Origin: a virus
Taxonomy: Duplodnaviria; Caudoviricetes
Virus record (IMG/VR): IMGVR_UViG_3300020045_002438
Location: 1 to 39,470 of that record
DNA length: 39,470 nt
Strand: one strand, 5' to 3'
This document shows positions 2,471-34,054 of this stretch, piece after piece. The notes beneath the pieces were generated by a model. The model was not told the DNA's origin. It saw only the letters and a program-made list of their open reading frames with translations, and made no database searches. How positions within the stretch are numbered: position 1 is the stretch's first letter; each line of letters opens with the position of its first letter. A program made the position numbers and the translations under genes.

Positions 2471-2953
2471 ATGGACGTTAAAATCTCGACAGTAGGAAGC
2501 GAAGACACTCAGGCGATCAATCAGGTCGTGGAGCTTTCTCGCGTGTTCACGGACGAGTGCCTTCTTTATCGCTCATTGGGCTTCAATCAGGACAAGTGCA
2601 AAGACTTCGTTTCCAAGTTCACAATCGTTGGCACGTCCTTGCTTCTGGCGCACGTCGATGGGGTTCCGGCTGGGTATTCCGCCGTTGTCGCCGACGATAT
2701 GCTGACAGATAAACCAAGGCTTGAAATGGTGACGTTTTACGTTCATCCTGATTTTCGGAATACAGGAGTTGGGGCGGCTCTCGCTGATAAGGTTGTAGAG
2801 TTGATCGAACTGAACGGGAATGGATATTCGCAGTTGTCCATTTGCGCTTATTTTGAAAATGATCGCGAGTTGATCCAACGCGCAACAGAACTTCTCTTCA
2901 AGAGAAGGGGCTTCAAACAAGTCGGTGTCATCCTCGGAAGAATGGGAGAATAG
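2471..2953 (+). CDS. GNAT-family N-acetyltransferase
   Basis: Acetyl-CoA motif FYVHPDFRNTGVGAAL and C-terminal FKRRGFK; AAGGGG RBS. Confidence 0.85.
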   Translation: MDVKISTVGSEDTQAINQVVELSRVFTDECLLYRSLGFNQDKCKDFVSKFTIVGTSLLLAHVDGVPAGYSAVVADDMLTDKPRLEMVTFYVHPDFRNTGVGAALADKVVELIELNGNGYSQLSICAYFENDRELIQRATELLFKRRGFKQVGVILGRMGE

Positions 2954-9294: not shown

Positions 9295-11342
9295 AACTCG
9301 TAACAATCTATAACAACTTTGCTCGCGGAAAAGTAGATCACGATATGATGGGAAGGTTTGATCTTCCCATTTACAGATCGGGCGCAGATGTCATTCAGAA
9401 CTTTTTCACCAACTTCAAGGGCAACGCGATTTTTCGCACGGGACTTGAGGAGATGTTGGGAGAGGCGTTTCAAGACTGCGTTTTCCAAGAGTTCAGATTT
9501 CGGGACGATCAAAATTATCTGCTTGTGTTTTATAACACGAAGATCAGGTTTCTTTCTTTTGACAGTAACGGAAACTTCGGATGGGTTCTCAACGGTGGCA
9601 GCACTATTCTTGAGGTCACTACCCCATACTCGCTCGCCCAATGTCGTGAGTTGCAGTTTACGCAGAATGCGGACGTTATGGTCATCACTCACCAGTCGTT
9701 TGCACCGAAGGCATTGACCCGTGTTTCGGCAAACAGCTTCACGATTGCTGATTACACGTTCACGGGTGGCACAGCACCATTCGGCGCAAGCCAATATCCA
9801 AGCTGTTGCCTGTATTATAAAGGCAGACTTTATTTTGCAGCAACCGCAGCAAAGACAACTACGATCTGGGGAAGCGAGAGCGGTCAATACAATAACTTCG
9901 TTATCCCGACAACGATCACAGATGCTTCGCCTCTTCAGTTCACGATTGCCGAAATCACGCAGCCTATCTCTTGGTTGTATGGCGGAGATAACTCGCTTAT
10001 CGCAGGAAGCGCGGATGGTCTTATTCCGATCAATGGCGGTTCTGCAGGCGAGGCGATCAAGTCCGACACGATTGAGGCCAATCTTTCTTCGGCTGATGGG
10101 TGCAACAAAACAATTCCGTTTAAAAAAGATGGACTTATTTTTTATGTCGGGAAGAACAGCCGAAACGCATATTATTTCAGCTATGATTTGCTGACGGAAA
10201 GTTTTCTTGGTGAAGATGCAAACTTCGTTTCTTACGACATCACAAGAGGCGGTATCGGAAAGATACGTTGGAAAAAGGATCGCGACGATCTTGTTTACTG
10301 TATCCGTGGAGATGGTCAGCTTATCTCGCTAAACTTCAAGCAGAAAGAGAACATCATTGGTTGGCACTCGCACAAAACGAGCGGAACTATAAAAGATATT
10401 GCCGTCATTACAGACAACCAAGGGAACCCGCAGTTGTTTACGTTGACCTATCGCAACTCAGCTTATTACATTGAGAAGGCGGCGGATCACGTTCAGTTTG
10501 AAGAGCGCGTTAGCTTCTTCTCTTATGATGGTGTCGAAAATCCGATAGAAGCAAAGGCGCGTGACGACGAGGCATATAACCGCTATGTCGCCGAGCAACT
10601 TCGTGACTGCGTTTATCTTGATTGTGCGTCGAAGGTATCCAACCTTCAGAGCAACGCGATCACATACAGTTCTGTGAGTGGTCAAATTGTTGCGACGAAC
10701 AATGTGTTTTCGGCTGGCGATGTAGGCAAGCACATCTCTTATAAAACCATGACAGGATATGAGAGCGGAAGGTTTGAGATTACTGGTTACGTCGATGCAA
10801 AAACCGTTTCTGTCAATGTCCTTCAGCCTCCAACATCTGACACATACACGGACTGGTATCTTTCGTTTTCGACGATCTCCGGCCTTTCGATTTATAACGG
10901 AAAATCTGTTGGAGTTGTAACGGACGGTGGTTATCTCGATGAGTTTGAGGTTTCGGCTGGCTCTATCAATCTCGGATCGCAAGTTCTCTCGGCTGTCGTT
11001 GGTTATCGCTATATGGGGATCATCAAGTCGTTCTGCCTCGGATTGCAGATCAACGCCGACAACACGCAAACGACGATGAAGTCAATCTCTCGCGTTGGCC
11101 TGAGAACCGTGTCTTCGGCAGGCGGTAAGTTTGGATCGTCCCTGTATAAGCTGGAAGACGTTCAGGAGCTATCGCAGCGCGACATCAACTACCTTCCTCC
11201 TATCCCTATGGACGGGACGAAATATGTTGCCTACGTCGATGACACGGAAACTGACAAGTTCTTTTATGTGGTGCAAAGCGAGCCGTTGCCGTTTATTATC
11301 ACAAGCGTTATGGTTGACGCATCAATGGCGTTGACGCGATGA
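9291..11342 (+). CDS. Tail tubular protein B / nozzle (T7 gp12-like)
   Basis: NNFARG start, TQNADVMVITH, YPSCC..YKGRLYF, GWHSH; 683 aa. Confidence 0.9.
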   Translation: MKLVTIYNNFARGKVDHDMMGRFDLPIYRSGADVIQNFFTNFKGNAIFRTGLEEMLGEAFQDCVFQEFRFRDDQNYLLVFYNTKIRFLSFDSNGNFGWVLNGGSTILEVTTPYSLAQCRELQFTQNADVMVITHQSFAPKALTRVSANSFTIADYTFTGGTAPFGASQYPSCCLYYKGRLYFAATAAKTTTIWGSESGQYNNFVIPTTITDASPLQFTIAEITQPISWLYGGDNSLIAGSADGLIPINGGSAGEAIKSDTIEANLSSADGCNKTIPFKKDGLIFYVGKNSRNAYYFSYDLLTESFLGEDANFVSYDITRGGIGKIRWKKDRDDLVYCIRGDGQLISLNFKQKENIIGWHSHKTSGTIKDIAVITDNQGNPQLFTLTYRNSAYYIEKAADHVQFEERVSFFSYDGVENPIEAKARDDEAYNRYVAEQLRDCVYLDCASKVSNLQSNAITYSSVSGQIVATNNVFSAGDVGKHISYKTMTGYESGRFEITGYVDAKTVSVNVLQPPTSDTYTDWYLSFSTISGLSIYNGKSVGVVTDGGYLDEFEVSAGSINLGSQVLSAVVGYRYMGIIKSFCLGLQINADNTQTTMKSISRVGLRTVSSAGGKFGSSLYKLEDVQELSQRDINYLPPIPMDGTKYVAYVDDTETDKFFYVVQSEPLPFIITSVMVDASMALTR

Positions 11343-11869: not shown

Positions 11870-13321
11870 ATGGCACAACGCAATCTCGTAAATATGCGTG
11901 AGGTAACTCAGGTCGTCGCCGAGAACCCGAACACGCTCCTTGACGCTGGTGTCGAAATCGGACAGGAGATCATGCGCCAGAGCCAAGAGGCGAAGATCAA
12001 CGAGAGCCTGTCGCAAGCGCAGCTTGATTTGAATGCGATGCAGTCACAGTATCAAACTGACTTCGAGGCCGATCCTATGGGCGGATTGACAGAATATAAG
12101 AAAAACCGCAAGGCCGTGTTCGATAAATATGCAGAAGGTATCTCTCCGCTTTATCGCCGGACATGGGAAGACAACGCCCGTAAGATTGCGCAGCAAAATG
12201 ACGCGACACAACAGGGCTGGGCTCTGAAGCAAACGCGAGTGAACACAGTCAATTCGATTAACAAGAGCATGAAGAACAACTTCCTTCAAGCGAACCTTGA
12301 CGGGCAAAAGTTTGGCGGAAGCGATGATGGTGAAATCTCTGCTTTCCTGAACTTTGAAAACTCGAAGAAGAGCTTGATGGAATGGGGATCGAAGAACGTA
12401 GGCCAAGAAACAACAGAAGGTATGCTTGAGAACTACGAAAACGATTACCTGAAATCTTTCGTTTCAGGCGTTTCTGATAGTAACCCGCAAAAAGCTGCCC
12501 GTCTTCTTGAGGATGAAAAAATCAGGACTCGATTTAAGTCTGATGAGATAGACACGATGGAAAACGTCATAAAGAAAAACATAAAACGACAACAGATCGG
12601 AAAGCTTTCAGAAGAAGTAAATAACGAAGATCAGTTGTCTGAGCTTGTTCTCTCTGATGGTGGTGATTATTATACTAAGCGTCTTCAGATCGACACTATG
12701 GAAATGAGCGGAAAGATTTCTACTACCTCGGCTGCAAAAGCTCGCCGTGTTCTGACATCACAAAAGAATGTTGATGCTCTCACAAACTCGGACGACATGG
12801 CTGACATCGTTAATCAAATGTATGATCTTAACGCTATGGCTGACACGAGCAGCGAGGATTATCTTGTCGGCATCCGAAACGTGCGCGACCGTATCCTTTC
12901 AGATCAGGCGGCTGGTAAATTGAAGCCAGACGATGCCAAGAAGCTCAATAGCCAGCTCCGCACCCTGACTGCCCAGAAGACATCGCAGGCCACTACAAAC
13001 GCAGCTATGGGCTTTTATGATAGCAATCAAAAGTTCTCCGCTCTTCCGCCTGAATATCGTGGCGCGGCTACGAGAGAACTGTTCTATAAAAGCCATGGTC
13101 AGGATTTCACTCCTCAGCAACTTGACATTGAAGCAAACAAAATTATCGACAACGTGAAGCGCGGGATCAGAACTGAAACCGTAAAGCGTTTGGATAATAT
13201 GAAGCAGCCTGATGTAGAGTTCTTGAAGACAAAAGGATACACGATGGATGATGTCGCAGAGACAGCAAAGATTTATGGCATCTCCGAACAACAAGTAATC
13301 CAGCGCATGAAGGCTCGGTAA
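11870..13321 (+). CDS. Internal virion (ejection) protein, gp15-like
   Basis: 483 aa helical protein between the gp14-like and gp16-like genes. Confidence 0.7.
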   Translation: MAQRNLVNMREVTQVVAENPNTLLDAGVEIGQEIMRQSQEAKINESLSQAQLDLNAMQSQYQTDFEADPMGGLTEYKKNRKAVFDKYAEGISPLYRRTWEDNARKIAQQNDATQQGWALKQTRVNTVNSINKSMKNNFLQANLDGQKFGGSDDGEISAFLNFENSKKSLMEWGSKNVGQETTEGMLENYENDYLKSFVSGVSDSNPQKAARLLEDEKIRTRFKSDEIDTMENVIKKNIKRQQIGKLSEEVNNEDQLSELVLSDGGDYYTKRLQIDTMEMSGKISTTSAAKARRVLTSQKNVDALTNSDDMADIVNQMYDLNAMADTSSEDYLVGIRNVRDRILSDQAAGKLKPDDAKKLNSQLRTLTAQKTSQATTNAAMGFYDSNQKFSALPPEYRGAATRELFYKSHGQDFTPQQLDIEANKIIDNVKRGIRTETVKRLDNMKQPDVEFLKTKGYTMDDVAETAKIYGISEQQVIQRMKAR

Positions 13322-16300
13322 TGGTCGATATTTTCAAAAAAGAAGGCATCAATATCGACGCTGTAGGTGAGGACGCTCAAACGTCTGCAAAGGATATTTT
13401 TGCAAGCGAGGGCATCGCTCCGCCAACCGTTTCTGAACAGAACAATGATGCGCTAAGCGCAGGCATTCGACTTGACGCGCCTTCTGGTGAAGACCAAGAG
13501 TTTGTTGCGAAAACAGTAAAGCAAGACATTTCAGATATGGAAGTCATTGCGAAATCTCGCTTCACACCAGAACAGATTGAGGGCTTCAAAAACAATCCTA
13601 TTGGTTTTTTTGAAGGCTTCAAATATCTGCGCAAACAAGATGTTCTGCCAGCAGGAAGTCTGAAGACGGCTTACGATCTTTTTGATGTGAACAACATCGC
13701 TAAGAAGATGGAAGCAGGAGAGGCGATTTCGGATGCCGAAACTGAAAAGCTGAACGGTTTTATAGATCGTGAAGTCGAGATGTCGCTTCGCGGGTTTTCA
13801 ATCGGAGGCGGTGTATCTTATGGGCTTTCTCAGGTTCCTGCGTTCGGCGTTGAGTTCTGGGCTTCTGGTGGTGTAGGCAAGATCGGGCAGACAGCCGCAA
13901 TCAAGGGCGCGGAAAAGTTTATTACAAAGGCGGTTGTGAAAAAGGCCGTCGGTCTTACGGCGAATGTTGTCGCTCGAACCGCAGTAATGCCGACACTCTA
14001 TACGCCCAAGTTCGCAGAGCGCAGGCTAAATGACTTTGCCGCGATCACGGATAAAGGCGAAATGATCTTGGCGCGCGGAGAAGAGAGCCCAGCAAAATCA
14101 GCTCTTCTTGCGTTCGGGTATTCTTCTGCTGAAGTCGCGAGCGAGATGTCGGGCGCGGCGTTGGGGAAATACGTCCTAGACCCGATTAGAGGCGTTCTAA
14201 AAACCCCGCTTGTTGCAGCAGTAAATAAATTGCCGTCGAGCGTGAGAGAGGCGGTTTATGCCGCATACAAGAAAATCAATCCTAATGCTCAGGTGTCAAA
14301 AGTCTTTACCGCAGCTGGTTGGAATGGCGTTGTTGAAGAGCTTGGAGAAGAACAAGTTAATCGCATCATGCAGTCAACTATGGAGCTTGCGGGAAATGAC
14401 AAGCAGGCAGCAACAAAAGGCGATTATTCTTTTGACGATTATTTGAACAGCCTTACTCCATCCTCGGATCAACTGTTGACTGAGGCCGGAATTGTTGCGC
14501 TGTCAGGAAGCGTAAAAACATCGGCAGACATCACGTTCAATCTTCTGAAAAACAAAGGCGTTGAAATCGCAAAAGCTAGGCAGATGGTCGATACGATGTC
14601 TGCGAACGAGCAGGAGCAATTCGTCGCAGAAAATATGCAGGAGCCCGTTTCTGGCTTCGTTCCAACTGTCGGTGCTGAGGTTGCAAAGCCAGTCGATATT
14701 AAGGATGAGAGCGTCCAATACATCGTTCAAGGAACGTCAACGATTGAGATCACGGAACAGGAAGCACTTGCTGACGGAGTTAATCCATCTCCATTTTTTC
14801 TTGAAGGAGAGGTTTCGCAATCACAAATCGCAGCTGTCGAAGTCAACGATCCACCGAAGATCATCGACGATGAAAGCACGGCAAACAAGTTCATCAGGGA
14901 GTGGGTTAACGAACTTGATCCAATCCAAAAACTTCCTGAGATGGCTCGCCAGCGCGGTATGAACATCTCTGAGATCAACGACACGAAACTTCTTTCCTCT
15001 ACATATTCCGGCATCCTTGGTCAGATCAGGCAGAACCTTCAGGTTAACACGTTCTCAAAAGACGCGAACGGTAACAACGTCATCACGGGAAAATCTCTGA
15101 AGGCAACGATGGATGATTTTGATAATATGTTCATCGCTTCAGAGCCAGTAAGGAAAAACAGAGAGCAAGACTTTTCTGATTACCTTATGGCGCAAAGATA
15201 CCTTCAAGACCTAGACCCAAGAGATGATGTCGAAGTCACAGAAGAACAGAAGGCGAAATCTGTTGCAGACCTCGCTCGCCTCGGACAGAAATATCAAAAT
15301 GACTTTGGTTTTTTTGAAGTTCTTGCGCAAGAGGTTTACGACTTTCAGCGGCGCATCCTGAAAAACCTTGTTGATAGCGGCGTTATGTCGGAACAGGTTT
15401 ACGATGGCATTTTGGCAAAGAACAAAAACTATGTCCCATTCCAGCGCGTCCTTGAAGAAGAAACATTCGCTGGGTCAATCTCGTCGAGCGCGGTGTTTAG
15501 CGACACAAACGCGAACAGGATTATCAAGCGAATTGCTGGGTCTGATAAAGAGGTCAAGAACGTCTTTCATTCGATCATCAAGAACACGGCTCGCATAATT
15601 GATATGTCTGCGCGGAATGAGGTCGCGAAGTCGATTGCCAATCTTGAAAGCGTTCTTCCTGAATACATCCAGCGCGTAGAAACGCCGATGATTAAAAAGG
15701 GAACAGCCAAGGTAAAGGTCACGTTCGATAAGCGGTTGCGTGAAAAGCTAGAGCAAACGATCAAACTCTTCGGCGAGGAGTTCCAACAAAAGAAGACGCT
15801 CAATAAGAGGGGGCAGCGCGGATATATTCGCGGCGACTACTCTCCTATGGAAAAACTTGTTCGCCTTCGCCTCGGATCGTCTGACGCTGTTTTGACGCAT
15901 GAGGTCGGACATATGCTCGACTTCCGGCTTGGCTTGAAAGACAAATTGCTCGGCGACCCAGAAATTAAAAAACAACTTATCAAGCTGGCAGAGCAACGCC
16001 TATCTTCTCAAACAGCGACAATCCAAAAAGGACAGTCGATCAACTTCGAGGAAACTCAATCGTTTTCTGAGAGCCAGAAGCACATTGATTATGTGAAGAG
16101 CGATAGAGAAATCCTTGCGAATATGTTTGATGCGTATGTCAACGCTCCCGATCTTTTGAAAAAGCTGGCTCCGAAGGCGAAGAAAGCGTTCGAGCAAATT
16201 ATCGACAACAACGAGGAGCTTGCATTCATAAAACAGATCAAGCCTTCCCTTGAAAGAAGCGAGGAAGAGGTTGAGCAGGATGTTTGGGGAGCCGCTGAAT

Positions 16301-17955
16301 ATGCCCCGCCTAATACGATAACTGTTCGTCGCAACGGGGTGAAAGAGTATTATCGTGTCGCGAAACCAATCCTTGCCGCTATTGAAAGCATGAACCCGTC
16401 GAAGCTGAACGTGATAGAGAAAATCTTCACAGCCTCGGCGAGCTTGCTTCGCTCCGGCGCGACACTCGTTCCTGAGTTCTGGGTGCGAAACGTCCTGCGC
16501 GACCAGCAGACCGCGCTACTTCAATCAGGCGTGAAATACAGGCCAACGGATTTTGTCCGTGGCCTCTGGGCTGTCGTGAGCAAAAACGATCTATACAACG
16601 AATGGGAGCGTTCAGGAGGGTCGTTCAACTCTTACATGGAACTGAACGATGACGGACTTGAAAAGGCATATCAGGAGCTATTCAGGCCGGAAGGCAAGCT
16701 GATGCGCTACATCAAAAACCCGATCAATGTCGCCGCAGATATTTCAAGCTCTTTGGAGCAGGCAACGCGCATCGGTGTTTTCAGCAGGGCGCAAGAAGGT
16801 GGTCAGTCTGACATTCAATCAGCGATGACATCACGCGATGCAACGCTTGACTTTTCTCGTCACGGCTCCGAAGGAAAACGCATCAACAGGTGGGTTCCGT
16901 TCTTCAACGCTGGCATACAGGGAACGGATAAACTTCTTCGCACATTCAAATCAAATCCAGCGGCGGCTACGTTCTGGGGGGTTGCAACTATCACTTTGCC
17001 AAGCGTTTTGATTACGGGTTATTATCTGTATGGCGCACCAGAGGATGAGAGGCGCGAATATCTTGAGGTTCCTGAGTGGCAGCGCGATATGTTTTGGATC
17101 GTGAAGGTTGGCGACGAATGGAAGAGATACCCCAAGCCTTTCACATACGGGTATTTGTTTGGTTCTCTTCCTGAGAAGATGATGCTTTGGATGTATAAGG
17201 GAGACAAGCCAGAAGGTAAGGCGGCGTGGCTTGATCTTGTTATGGGCTTAGGTGGTTCGTTCTCTCCTGTTTATGACGCAAGCTCTTTGATCCCTCCTAT
17301 AGCGAAGGTGGCTATTGAGGACGTGTCGAATTACAACTTCTTCACGGGACGAAACATTTATCCTGAATGGATGGAACGTCTTGACCCTGAAATGCAGGCC
17401 AGTAAATACACAAGCGAAACTGCAAAGTTTTTAGGAGAGAAGTTTGGCGTTTCCCCTGCGAAGATTGAAAACACTTTAAGGGGTCAGATCGCTGGTGCTT
17501 CGGATTACGTTACTGGTGCTGGTGATATGATCCTAAAGAAAGTGAAAGAATGGAATGGTGAAAAGGTTCCTGAAGAGCCGCTCACTCCGTCTGATATTGC
17601 TGTGCTTAAAGCATTCGCCGTCCGCCGTCCTGCTGGCTATCGTTCTCAGTCTGCAAAATACTTCTTCGAAAACTTTGATGAGGTTCAGAAGAAGCAAAAC
17701 ACATCTAAGAAGCTGGAAGGTGTTGAGAAAAAGGAATACGATCAGAAGCACCGTAATGTTATTTCTCAATACTCTTTTCTGTCCAGTTCATTCAAGGGAA
17801 TGAAGGGTTTTCAGAAGCAAGTTGATGAGATTTATGATAACAAAAGTATGTCGTCTGAAGAGAAGGTGAAGCGCATAAATGATCTCGAAGACCGCATCAC
17901 GGAGATTGCAAGACGGGCAAACACAAGCTACAATCGGAACAAGGGGGACAAGTAA
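13321..17955 (+). CDS. Large internal virion protein with zincin metallopeptidase and LPD38-like C-terminal domain
   Basis: 1544 aa; THEVGHMLD plus downstream REILAN; RDATLDFSRHG...VPFFNAGIQG and W.R.PKPF motifs typical of LPD38 ejection proteins. Confidence 0.82.
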   Translation: MVDIFKKEGINIDAVGEDAQTSAKDIFASEGIAPPTVSEQNNDALSAGIRLDAPSGEDQEFVAKTVKQDISDMEVIAKSRFTPEQIEGFKNNPIGFFEGFKYLRKQDVLPAGSLKTAYDLFDVNNIAKKMEAGEAISDAETEKLNGFIDREVEMSLRGFSIGGGVSYGLSQVPAFGVEFWASGGVGKIGQTAAIKGAEKFITKAVVKKAVGLTANVVARTAVMPTLYTPKFAERRLNDFAAITDKGEMILARGEESPAKSALLAFGYSSAEVASEMSGAALGKYVLDPIRGVLKTPLVAAVNKLPSSVREAVYAAYKKINPNAQVSKVFTAAGWNGVVEELGEEQVNRIMQSTMELAGNDKQAATKGDYSFDDYLNSLTPSSDQLLTEAGIVALSGSVKTSADITFNLLKNKGVEIAKARQMVDTMSANEQEQFVAENMQEPVSGFVPTVGAEVAKPVDIKDESVQYIVQGTSTIEITEQEALADGVNPSPFFLEGEVSQSQIAAVEVNDPPKIIDDESTANKFIREWVNELDPIQKLPEMARQRGMNISEINDTKLLSSTYSGILGQIRQNLQVNTFSKDANGNNVITGKSLKATMDDFDNMFIASEPVRKNREQDFSDYLMAQRYLQDLDPRDDVEVTEEQKAKSVADLARLGQKYQNDFGFFEVLAQEVYDFQRRILKNLVDSGVMSEQVYDGILAKNKNYVPFQRVLEEETFAGSISSSAVFSDTNANRIIKRIAGSDKEVKNVFHSIIKNTARIIDMSARNEVAKSIANLESVLPEYIQRVETPMIKKGTAKVKVTFDKRLREKLEQTIKLFGEEFQQKKTLNKRGQRGYIRGDYSPMEKLVRLRLGSSDAVLTHEVGHMLDFRLGLKDKLLGDPEIKKQLIKLAEQRLSSQTATIQKGQSINFEETQSFSESQKHIDYVKSDREILANMFDAYVNAPDLLKKLAPKAKKAFEQIIDNNEELAFIKQIKPSLERSEEEVEQDVWGAAEYAPPNTITVRRNGVKEYYRVAKPILAAIESMNPSKLNVIEKIFTASASLLRSGATLVPEFWVRNVLRDQQTALLQSGVKYRPTDFVRGLWAVVSKNDLYNEWERSGGSFNSYMELNDDGLEKAYQELFRPEGKLMRYIKNPINVAADISSSLEQATRIGVFSRAQEGGQSDIQSAMTSRDATLDFSRHGSEGKRINRWVPFFNAGIQGTDKLLRTFKSNPAAATFWGVATITLPSVLITGYYLYGAPEDERREYLEVPEWQRDMFWIVKVGDEWKRYPKPFTYGYLFGSLPEKMMLWMYKGDKPEGKAAWLDLVMGLGGSFSPVYDASSLIPPIAKVAIEDVSNYNFFTGRNIYPEWMERLDPEMQASKYTSETAKFLGEKFGVSPAKIENTLRGQIAGASDYVTGAGDMILKKVKEWNGEKVPEEPLTPSDIAVLKAFAVRRPAGYRSQSAKYFFENFDEVQKKQNTSKKLEGVEKKEYDQKHRNVISQYSFLSSSFKGMKGFQKQVDEIYDNKSMSSEEKVKRINDLEDRITEIARRANTSYNRNKGDK

Positions 17956-19990: not shown

Positions 19991-20392
19991 ATGTTTCAAC
20001 TAAGCCAACGAAGCCTTGATAAAATCGTTCTTGTCCATCCGGCTCTTTACGATGTCGTGCTCCGCGCAATACAAATCACAGAGATCGACTTCTGCGTCAC
20101 AGAGGGCAGGAGGACGAAGGAGCGGCAAGAGAAGCTGTTCGCTTCCGGCGCAAGCACGACCATGAACAGCCGCCACCTGACAGGCCATGCCGTCGATCTT
20201 GCGGCGATGATCGACTTTGACTGTGACGGGAAGCCGGAGGTTCGCTGGGACTGGCCTCTTTATGAAAAGCTGGCTGTAGCCATGAAGGGCGCGGCGCACG
20301 AGCTGAACGTCCCTATCGTCTGGGGCGGGGACTGGGTTTCGTTTAAGGACGGGGCTCACTTCGAGTTGGACAGAAAGGTGTATCCGGCATGA
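19991..20392 (+). CDS. Endolysin, M15-family peptidase (L-Ala-D-Glu type)
   Basis: EGRRTKERQ, SRHLTGHAVD, WGGDW and DGAHFEL motifs. Confidence 0.93.
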   Translation: MFQLSQRSLDKIVLVHPALYDVVLRAIQITEIDFCVTEGRRTKERQEKLFASGASTTMNSRHLTGHAVDLAAMIDFDCDGKPEVRWDWPLYEKLAVAMKGAAHELNVPIVWGGDWVSFKDGAHFELDRKVYPA

Positions 20393-20856
20393 TCGCTTGG
20401 TTGCTAAAGAACGCCCTGCCAATCAGCGCAGGAGCCTTGCTGGTTGGTCTTACGGGGTTCGCCATGCATACCCTAGCCATGAACCATCAAAAGGCTTCAT
20501 ACGAGCGGAAATTGACGGAACAAAAGACGGTCTTGACCGAACAATGTGAGGCTTCAAAAGCCGTTACCGAGGAGGTGTCTAGTGAATACCAAAAGAAACT
20601 TGCTGAGCGTGATAGCTCTCTCGCTCGCGCTCGCCGCCTGCTCAACACCCGATGCGAGGCAACCGTGGTCGTCCACACCCCCACCGGATATAATGGTTCC
20701 TACGGCGAAGGAAAGTCTGCTGGACAGGATGATCGCAGTCTTAGGGCTGATGCCAACGACATCATCGACCTTGCCGCAGAAGGCGAGCGTTACCGCCTCC
20801 AACTGATAGGTTGCCAGTCGTTCGTGGAAAAAAGCCGATCACTCAGGACGCAATAA
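20389..20856 (+). CDS. rz: Inner-membrane spanin (Rz-like)
   Basis: N-terminal TM segment, periplasmic coiled coil, C-terminal L..CQ.FV. Confidence 0.8.
   Translation: MIAWLLKNALPISAGALLVGLTGFAMHTLAMNHQKASYERKLTEQKTVLTEQCEASKAVTEEVSSEYQKKLAERDSSLARARRLLNTRCEATVVVHTPTGYNGSYGEGKSAGQDDRSLRADANDIIDLAAEGERYRLQLIGCQSFVEKSRSLRTQ
20582..20806 (+). CDS. rz1: Outer-membrane spanin lipoprotein (Rz1-like), embedded in Rz in the +1 frame
   Basis: GGAGGT RBS then GTG; signal peptide MNTKRNLLSVIALSLALAAC with lipobox LAAC; Pro-rich mature part. Confidence 0.8.
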   Translation: MNTKRNLLSVIALSLALAACSTPDARQPWSSTPPPDIMVPTAKESLLDRMIAVLGLMPTTSSTLPQKASVTASN

Positions 20857-20890
20857 AAAAGGCTCACAGCATGAGGTCTGTGAGCCTTTA
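20855..20890. terminator. Bidirectional terminator between the convergent late and early arms
   Basis: 12-bp stem AAAGGCTCACAG/CTGTGAGCCTTT flanked by A and T runs. Confidence 0.85.
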
Positions 20891-20893
20891 ATT

Positions 20894-20968
20894 TGGGTGC
20901 GGGGGTCGGACTTGAACCGACGACCTTCAGTTTATGGGACTGACGAGCTGCCTCTGCTCCACCCCGCG
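20894..20968 (-). tRNA. tRNA-Met(CAT), initiator-like with atypical features, CCA encoded
   Basis: Cloverleaf CGCGGGG-TG-GAGC AGAGGCA GCTC-G-TCAGT CCCATAA ACTGA-AGGTC-GTCGG TTCAAGT CCGAC-CCCCGCA-C-CCA. Confidence 0.92.
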
Positions 20969-20976
20969 CACGAAGA

Positions 20977-21198
20977 TTATTCCGATTTCTCTTCCTTCTT
21001 GTCAACATCTTCTTTGAAGATGATCGCACGAACTGCGCAGTCCTTGGCTTCAAGCAGGCGGCGCAGCGCGACACTCTTCTCTGGGTTCTCAGGAAGATGC
21101 TCGTTCATTTCGATAGCCAGATCGCCAAACTTTTTGCTGACAGACTTCATCGGCTCAGGTAGGTGGTCGTAGCTAAAAAACTGCATGATCTTTTGCAT
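20977..21198 (-). CDS. Small helical phage protein, possible Acb2/Tad1-like nucleotide sponge (73 aa)
   Basis: FFSYDHLP...LPENPEKSVALRRLLEAKDCAVRA; AAAGGGA RBS. Confidence 0.6.
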   Translation of the reverse strand: MQKIMQFFSYDHLPEPMKSVSKKFGDLAIEMNEHLPENPEKSVALRRLLEAKDCAVRAIIFKEDVDKKEEKSE

Positions 21199-33191: not shown

Positions 33192-33851
33192 TCAAGTGCG
33201 CATCGGCATCAACACGGCTAGGTATGGGCTACCATCGCCAAGGGTGACAAAGGCGGGGGCTTTGTCGTCAAGCATTTCGATCTTAACGCCAGCACCGCCG
33301 CGCCCGATTATCTTGTTCACCTTCGCAAAGTCGCCAAGCAATGCAGGATTGAAGCCGCATGAAAAAGTAGAAGGTTGATTTACAAGCTCGCTCTTTGTCA
33401 TATCGTCTCGCTCTTTTTCGACCCTCTGCGTGTGCGTCTCTTTGTCCGGTATCACGCGCTCGTAATCGTGGAACGTGCCGTCTATCGCTCGCATGGAATA
33501 GCTTGCGCCGTCATAAACCAAAGTCAGCTCTGGCGGACGGTCAAGGGTTTCCGTTCCCTCAACAGTAAGGTGCGCCCAACAAAGTGTTTTCCCGATCTTC
33601 ACTTTTTCGATCAACTGCGCCGGAATGATGAACTTTAGCGTTTCCTCTCTTGTCCCTTCTGCAAAATCAAAATCCTTTCCCTCTTTCTGGGAAAACTTGA
33701 TTAAGCGGTGTCCGTCTGTTGCGACGAAGTTTAACTCGCTTCCCTTCATCTCAAACAAAACGCCGTTCAAATAATAGCGCGTCTCCTCTTTGCTGGCGAA
33801 CACGTTCGTGGCCTTCAGGTTCGCGATCTTGATTTGGATGGTTGCTTTCAT
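33192..33851 (-). CDS. Shortened DNA polymerase III beta-clamp (DnaN)-like protein (219 aa)
   Basis: ASKEETRYYLNGV, VATDGHRL, IDGTFHDYERVIP, GFNPALL, VLMPMR; AAGGA RBS. Confidence 0.88.
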   Translation of the reverse strand: MKATIQIKIANLKATNVFASKEETRYYLNGVLFEMKGSELNFVATDGHRLIKFSQKEGKDFDFAEGTREETLKFIIPAQLIEKVKIGKTLCWAHLTVEGTETLDRPPELTLVYDGASYSMRAIDGTFHDYERVIPDKETHTQRVEKERDDMTKSELVNQPSTFSCGFNPALLGDFAKVNKIIGRGGAGVKIEMLDDKAPAFVTLGDGSPYLAVLMPMRT

Positions 33852-33865
33852 GGCTTGGTTTCCTT

Positions 33866-34054
33866 TCACAAATAGCCGTAGTATTGAACGCCGTTTTCAA
33901 TCCACAACGGAACAAGCGGCGAGGACAAGTTTCCGTTTAACTCTTCGTGCGTTGTCTCCACATAATTTTCATTAGGTGGATTTTCAGCAATACACGCCAC
34001 GATGTTTGTGCATTCATATTCGCGCTTGACGAAGTTTTTATTTCTGAAAAGCAT
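33866..34054 (-). CDS. Hypothetical protein (62 aa)
   Basis: GAGGGGG RBS; fills the gap between its neighbours. Confidence 0.65.
   Translation of the reverse strand: MLFRNKNFVKREYECTNIVACIAENPPNENYVETTHEELNGNLSSPLVPLWIENGVQYYGYL

Follow-up and report, generated by a model that had tools for sequence, protein, structure and literature searches.

The window analysed here, a stretch of 39,470 nucleotides, is a complete phage genome (39.5 kb, with a 121-bp terminal overlap) in which packaging, head, tail and lysis genes occupy the plus strand up to position 20856 and replication and recombination genes run along the minus strand from 35021 to 20977. The junction of these two arms holds a tRNA gene, with a gene for a 73-aa protein upstream of it and a spanin gene on the other side (Table 1). 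The closest cultured phages are at most 50% identical to this genome, and the terminase homologues found carry no organism names; related sequence is present in wastewater runs, one of them perhaps the sample of origin. A search with the spanin found no relative. Elsewhere in the genome, a GNAT acetyltransferase is encoded between the terminase and portal genes (2471-2953, plus strand), a 1544-aa protein carries an LPD38 domain (13321-17955, plus strand), and another protein has a DNA polymerase III beta-like domain (33192-33869, minus strand).

Table 1. Features at the junction of the two gene arms, in window positions.
Feature	Position	Strand	Basis
Rz-like spanin at the end of the convergent late module	20389..20856	+	phrog_1327, E 5e-4
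Intrinsic-terminator-like hairpin, 12 pairs and T tail, 4 nt after CCA	20858..20889	-	terminator scan
Initiator-type tRNA-Met(CAU), encoded CCA, 7-nt D loop	20894..20968	-	ARAGORN, Rfam, sequence
G at -1, where transcription is inferred to start; possible partner of C73	20969..20969	-	sequence and spacing
Predicted -10 hexamer AATAAT, 18-nt spacer, overlaps the upstream ORF's stop codon	20976..20981	-	promoter scan
73-aa helical-hairpin gene, PHROG 1761/5120	20977..21198	-	homology, fold prediction
Predicted -35 hexamer TTGACA, within the 3'-terminal part of the upstream ORF	21000..21005	-	promoter scan

The tRNA gene appears to be a transcription unit of its own. The TTGACA-18-AATAAT site, 7 nt upstream of the gene, is a predicted sigma-70-like promoter and the only site in the genome with at least 11 of 12 matches on either strand of the 39.5 kb; in 30 shuffles, sites of this quality arose anywhere in the genome 0.63 times on average. 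The -35 hexamer sits in coding sequence, which is a caveat, and a relative lacking the tRNA (L154) also has a near match to the promoter. With the usual spacing of sigma-70 promoters, transcription would start at G-1. Neither the site nor G-1 figured in the original prediction. The convergent lysis transcript probably ends at the terminator-like hairpin as well. Since the scan called no terminator separating the tRNA from the upstream ORF, read-through from that ORF may add to the tRNA transcript; the original prediction, which made the tRNA the last unit of the early transcript, is not supported as the whole story for a gene with its own predicted promoter. Two sequencing runs labelled as RNA are probably DNA, and their contigs show no ends.

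ARAGORN calls a tRNA-Met(CAT) at this position as the sole tRNA of the window, Rfam RF00005 matches it with 54.5 bits (E 3.5e-9), and the fold of lowest energy for the 75-nt gene is the cloverleaf, at -27.8 kcal/mol, where a cellular alphaproteobacterial copy has -28.0. The sequence has a C1:A72 mismatch (20968/20898) and keeps A11:U24, G2:C71, C3:G70 and the CAU anticodon. C1:A72 together with A11:U24 excludes an elongator-Met identity and, given the general features of Ile2 tRNAs, an Ile2 identity as well. The bacterial initiator marks described in PMC9976931 (CAU, a 1:72 mismatch, R11:Y24, G2:C71 and C3:G70) are all present.

The anticodon arm and the discriminator depart from this pattern. 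The stem reads UCAGU/ACUGA, so that the pairs at 29-31:39-41 are A29:U41, G30:C40 and U31:A39 and only the middle one of the three G-C pairs of a bacterial initiator is kept; position 33 is C (20937), and the discriminator is C73 (20897) instead of A73. All of these bases had been read correctly in the original prediction, as had the initiator hallmarks. In the cellular initiators compared, 29-31:39-41 is GGG/CCC in E. coli (L400) and AGG/CCU in two Alphaproteobacteria (Novosphingobium, L399; Azospirillum, L401), whereas the phage tRNA has AGU/ACU. Read at the sequence level, what is new in relation to the alphaproteobacterial type is therefore U31:A39, C33 and C73 only, and A29:U41 is ordinary there. 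The description of an arm with no three G-C pairs was consequently overstated: U31:A39 does depart, but G30:C40, the pair found essential in PMC5389676, is retained, and a loss of initiator stem identity does not follow. The wider claim of an initiator-type tRNA with compensated changes is supported by comparison: this arm is absent from the housekeeping initiators of the genomes searched, and alterations at 31:39, 33 and 73 are far more frequent in viral initiators than in the cellular ones checked. The gene is a real, intact and phage-adapted tRNA of the initiator type.

The closest cellular tRNAs are alphaproteobacterial (85.7% identity) and enterobacterial (84.4%), and the tRNA alone suggests an alphaproteobacterial-like character. 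Across 185,579 cellular genomes, the exact arm pattern occurs in 10 stretches, nine of them in cyanobacterial accessory arrays of 20-27 tRNAs, with U33 and A73, and one not a tRNA; in none of these genomes does a housekeeping initiator have the phage arm. The initiator-like tRNA of the cyanobacterial arrays (L023-L030, L032) combines the UCAGU/ACUGA stem with U1:C72 and A73. As far as these genomes go, the gene is not a copy of a host initiator. Best matches as low as these leave some room for a passive relic, either a copy of the initiator tRNA of an unsampled host or an attachment-site remnant, and the genomes of uncultured hosts often miss tRNAs. We nevertheless consider this origin very improbable, as the 54 ORFs scanned in this complete genome include no integrase, no 14-mer of the tRNA has a second copy in the genome, as an attP-type remnant would, and the gene is full-length with a predicted promoter and terminator.

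The single changes are widespread in viruses. A position-blind sample of viral loci (120 loci from 2 of 64 parts, of about 4300 in all) yielded 109 parsed tRNAs, 104 of them distinct and initiator-type, with G30:C40 fixed by the search pattern and host copies in proviruses included. The 31:39 pair is altered in 16 of the 104 and still paired in 15 of those, C33 occurs in 6, and 10 are without A73; at least one change at 31:39, 33 or 73 is found in 29/104, and two changes in 3. By comparison, the 150 spirochaete initiators listed of 354 matches, read by eye, all have GGG/CCC, U33 and A73 (29/104 vs 0/150, Fisher p 4e-13), a cellular baseline which for positions 33 and 73 is one phylum and not that of the host. 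Viral initiators vary at 1:72, 27:43 and 28:42 as well.

Pattern scans returned 22 viral stretches for the arm with U31:A39 (U33 in all), an estimated 420 or so for C33, and 100 for C73-CCA in a scan that left G30 unconstrained. Among viral tRNAs with A11:U24, the 31:39 pair is altered in 20/46 with C73 and in 15/94 with A73 (p 7e-4), and G30 is retained in 42 of the 46 C73 tRNAs. Because G30 is conserved in this way, the viral sequences point to continued use in initiation. In metagenomes, C33 together with U31:A39 gave six matches, of which five are tRNAs, all with A73, and only one further distinct parsed tRNA (L051/L174) is changed at all three positions. Judged by these sequences, each single change is a recurring viral trait and the triple combination is rare; the substitutions, for which a search of other phage tRNAs had been proposed originally, are found beyond this phage as well. 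Among cultured phages, CcrSC and CcrColossus of Caulobacter have initiators with C73 and U73. We know of no function for them. In six viral C73 tRNAs with a U31.G39 pair and a CAU anticodon (L173, L183, L204, L220, L223 and L259), a near-consensus sigma-70 promoter lies 10-11 nt upstream of each gene, the same stand-alone design.

The nearest viral tRNA (L011) shares G-1, C73 and U31:A39 with the phage tRNA. If G-1 were retained, it could pair with C73 as in bacterial tRNA-His, and thereby alter processing or permit histidine charging of a tRNA that reads AUG; G-1 is indeed the inferred transcription start, and a G-1:C73 pair confers histidine acceptance on minihelices (PMC9976931). However, G-1 shows no significant covariation with C73 (5/49 C73 vs 8/162 A73 viral tRNAs, p 0.19), the pair adds no stability (-27.5 vs -27.8 kcal/mol), and the anticodon is CAU, not the GUG of a tRNA-His, the anticodon also being read by HisRS (PMC9976931), all of which makes this the least probable of the readings weighed.

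How well such a tRNA works can be gauged from E. coli mutants. The middle G-C pair is essential and suffices for growth, au/GC/gu and cg/GC/cg stems sustain the cell at a cost, and ua/cg/au fails (PMC5389676); the au/GC/ua stem of the phage does not appear among the mutants listed there, and double flank mutants grow poorly in that work. A73 is a MetRS determinant and a minor Fmt determinant (PMC9976931), for which reason a functional cost is expected, and the three changes together may weaken the tRNA. Eukaryotic initiator tRNAs normally have C33 (PMC9023262), which should therefore be tolerable in a P-site tRNA, a point that fits drift equally. The RNA could also act as a decoy or inhibitor, in which case an abundant RNA and poor initiator would titrate a host nuclease or toxin or stall 30S/70S initiation complexes. 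Mutants of the three G-C pairs do become formylated yet pass the 70S step slowly, and toxicity is seen in some of them (PMC5389676); the missing entry for this exact stem and the promoter of the tRNA's own would also suit a decoy. Nonetheless, one would expect the host recognition site to be kept in a decoy instead of changed, and the essential G30 is preserved in 42 of 46 viral C73 initiators, so that a decoy is decidedly unlikely.

The preferred reading is that the gene supplies an intact replacement initiator tRNA-fMet, likely working and likely resistant to a host defence that cuts or modifies tRNA, a combination to which we give about equal weight for and against. Host RNA polymerase would transcribe the gene from the sigma-70 site, MetRS would charge the product through its anticodon, Fmt would formylate it, somewhat less well without A73, and the tRNA would initiate at reduced efficiency. 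A39/U31 and C33 would spoil the site read by anticodon-arm nucleases of a VapC-like or Toprim-like kind, C73 would spoil recognition by acceptor-end toxins, and the initiation of phage proteins could continue once the host tRNA-fMet was lost.

NTHi VapC reportedly requires G-C pairs near the loop to recognise tRNA-fMet. Bacteriophage T5 uses a tRNA-Lys with A39 against PARIS (PMC11464382), and the change of U39 to A alone abolishes cleavage of tRNA-Lys by AriB, though tRNA-fMet is not among the targets reported for this enzyme (PMC12409363). VapCs cleave tRNA-fMet where the anticodon stem joins the loop, with specificity for both sequence and structure, and an alphaproteobacterial VapC lowers tRNA-fMet (PMC8522696); A39 lies at this junction, in the region of the VapC cut. 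At the acceptor end, base 73 is a determinant for the nuclease CdiA-CT EC869, which cuts tRNA-fMet too (PMC9071432). In view of the AriB, VapC and CdiA-CT precedents, escape would most likely be the cause of the changes, with no specific enzyme nameable. Two candidates leave their determinants in place. Resistance to AtaT, part of the original prediction, finds no support in the sequence, since AtaT reads G4G5G6:C67C68C69 and C1:A72 (PMC7595197), all intact here, and the paired CNG motif that P2-OLD cuts (PMC12445682) is still present at 28-30/40-42, by our own placement of the motif. Enteric phages mostly avoid encoding tRNA-fMet (PMC10264068).

Against escape, an excess of change is also predicted by relaxed selection. 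The tRNA could simply enlarge the fMet-tRNA pool and have drifted within what translation tolerates. Such a supply gene would agree with the predicted strength of the promoter, with the variation of viral initiators at 1:72, 27:43 and 28:42, with the tolerance of C33 seen in eukaryotic initiators (PMC9023262), and with the U31:A39 tRNAs of cyanobacterial arrays, a kind of array reported to be induced under translational stress. Yet U31:A39 takes two compensating substitutions, the changes at 31:39 and 73 co-occur, and all three changes weaken known identity elements or put them at risk, an outcome that selection for supply alone would not favour. Extra supply with drift is thus a rather unlikely account, and replacement with escape is the reading retained.

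The gene upstream of the tRNA had been proposed as an anti-defence gene, and this stands as a lead only. Its family is widespread in phages (464 IMG/VR stretches and 319 cultured records), and its predicted structure is a helical hairpin (pLDDT 93). A homodimer was predicted with a score of 0.65, the best control reaching 0.00, and with model contacts in agreement at 95% or more and pLDDT of at least 77; the mark for this score is reached by 20/30 solved pairs and 1/23 single chains. The match to PF24729, the Acb2/Tad1 hairpin, has 14.5 bits (cut-off 27, E 0.042) and recurs at E<=0.05 in 4/51 family members, and the Atlas score for likeness to the Acb2/Tad1 hairpin is 0.94, with PF24729 on 12-45% of cluster members. 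PF21825, the Sequestin sponge defined in 10.1101/2025.07.12.664507, matches 0/51 members at E<=0.05. Fold and sequence searches against solved structures gave generic helices only (best Z 7.7, rmsd 2.1, 69 aligned), with Acb2 and Tad1 absent among the matches listed, which does not speak against a fold of their kind; PADLOC had no match for 12 nearby or small ORFs, and NCBIfam gave sub-threshold matches only.

In the best 80 homologue loci, a tRNA lies within 1.5 kb of the hairpin gene in four, and in three of these it is a Met tRNA with C1:A72 ending 17-29 nt before the hairpin start codon. A scan that left the type of tRNA open (a tRNA 3' end with CCA, then 30-60 nt, then the hairpin motif) returned 89 loci, with true homologues at 5, all five following a tRNA-Met(CAU) with C1:A72 and A73; among the 84 other loci, a tRNA was called at 31, and two of these were Met (p 6e-5; with only the two cases that this open scan added, p 0.011). 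Met may be common among solitary phage tRNAs, a possibility that this control covers only partly. Several of the five paired tRNAs have altered anticodon arms (A31/A39, C31:G39, U37-C38), and one is without R11:Y24. By our own reading of their ORFs, the records differ from one another: one phage is AT-rich, one is Mu-like, one is complete at 33 kb, and the other two are related proviruses with tRNA arrays. Two of the five have no tRNA besides the Met tRNA, which in the arrays is one of 27-32 matches. The gene order in the window is the reverse of theirs. In the Mu-like phage (L537; L574:2755-2829), an initiator-type tRNA with its three G-C pairs intact and a loop of U32-U33-CAU-U37-C38 directly precedes the hairpin homologue. 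Just upstream of the tRNA-Met in L573 (G405:C1:29863-29963) lies a 101-nt tRNA-like element (Rfam 40.5 bits) not called by ARAGORN, and in Mesorhizobium phage Cp1R7A-A1 (L576:1678-2087, minus strand) an unannotated permuted tmRNA call abuts a hairpin homologue.

The hairpin proteins of Met-tRNA loci are 42-81% identical, and in a quick tree of 79 hairpin proteins, with 57/76 inner branches unresolved, these loci are scattered (6 changes, against a shuffled mean of 5.9). This recurring pairing is a new lead. Hairpin and altered initiator tRNA might be the two parts of a counter-defence cassette that has come together several times in phages unrelated to each other and is directed at an unrecognised immune pathway which destroys or disables tRNA-fMet; in this cassette the hairpin would soak up an activating nucleotide signal or block the effector directly and the tRNA would bypass the damage. 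We regard such a cassette as unlikely. Against a tight module, about 99% of hairpin homologues show no such tRNA, and the relative L154 has the hairpin gene alone; moreover, an adjacent tRNA-Met was found in 0/4 cultured-phage homologue loci checked, and no cultured phage covers 80% of the L423 cassette.

The close relative L154 shares 41-86% amino acid identity with the window over common ORFs and keeps the gene order, but its record, 91% complete, yielded no tRNA, for which reason the tRNA is seen as an accessory gene. The slot is taken by a 15-codon basic, lysine-rich ORF (10435-10482, plus strand) with a strong Shine-Dalgarno sequence, and the terminator after it is a different one. Contigs related to the window in wastewater run X1 vary in the D loop and the promoter spacer, and base 39 is invariant (other bases 0 of depth 53). 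Among the differences listed for these contigs, those in the promoter fall in the spacer (20995, 20997, 20998) and none in the hexamers, which lie in coding sequence. A contig from a second study (run X6, record 32) is identical over 63 nt (window 20906-20968) with its first 143 nt unaligned, which suggests that this tRNA also occurs in a different or diverged setting.

Escape as a strategy has precedents among elongator tRNAs, and each of the changes taken singly is common in phages. Phage-tRNA escape has been proven for elongators (Lys, Thr, Asn), and no test of whether a phage initiator tRNA withstands a defence was found in the literature searched, which took in few subscription journals and no supplements of PMC10264068 and PMC5389676; the abstract and a term search of PMC13692257 mention neither fMet, initiator, discriminator nor sponge. 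The initiator is the one tRNA every protein needs, and this gene offers a clean test case: one tRNA, its own predicted promoter, three revertible bases and a relative without the tRNA. On a broader scale, variation at 31:39, 33 and 73 is found in hundreds of viral initiators, which mostly keep G30 and thus provide a map of pressure that could help to find unidentified defences targeting tRNA-fMet, as well as natural alleles for how far the rules of the three G-C pairs and A73 bend. If the pairing with the hairpin is functional, it would be an undescribed link between nucleotide signalling and attack on the initiator tRNA.

Set against known systems, the 73-aa protein is weakly like the Acb2/Tad1 sponges (PF24729), being likewise a small phage protein, with a predicted helical hairpin and a predicted homo-oligomer, but it stays below the gathering score. 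The initiator-like tRNA of cyanobacterial arrays (array kind: PMC8421152) has the UCAGU/ACUGA stem, A11:U24 and a 1:72 mismatch in common with the phage tRNA, and differs in U33, A73 and its place as one of 20-27 tRNAs. The tRNA-fMet genes of CcrSC and CcrColossus (MH588547, JX100810) are likewise initiator-type with a pyrimidine at 73 and G30:C40, but belong to phages of 280-317 kb and keep G31:C39 and U33. As in T5 tRNA-Lys(UUU) (PMC11464382, PMC12409363), A39 stands in a still-paired anticodon stem, beside the cleavage site there and beside a putative one here; the tRNA of T5 is an elongator whose nuclease is known and whose resistance is proven, whereas the present one is an initiator-type tRNA known from its sequence, which differs from all cellular copies checked. 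The closest likeness is to the alphaproteobacterial initiator (L399, L401; PMC5389676), with which the phage tRNA shares the acceptor stem, C1:A72, A11:U24, U27-C28-A29-G30, the variable loop and CCA, with seven differences outside the D loop from the Novosphingobium copy, and from which it is set apart by U31:A39, C33, C73, a shorter D loop and changes in the T arm.
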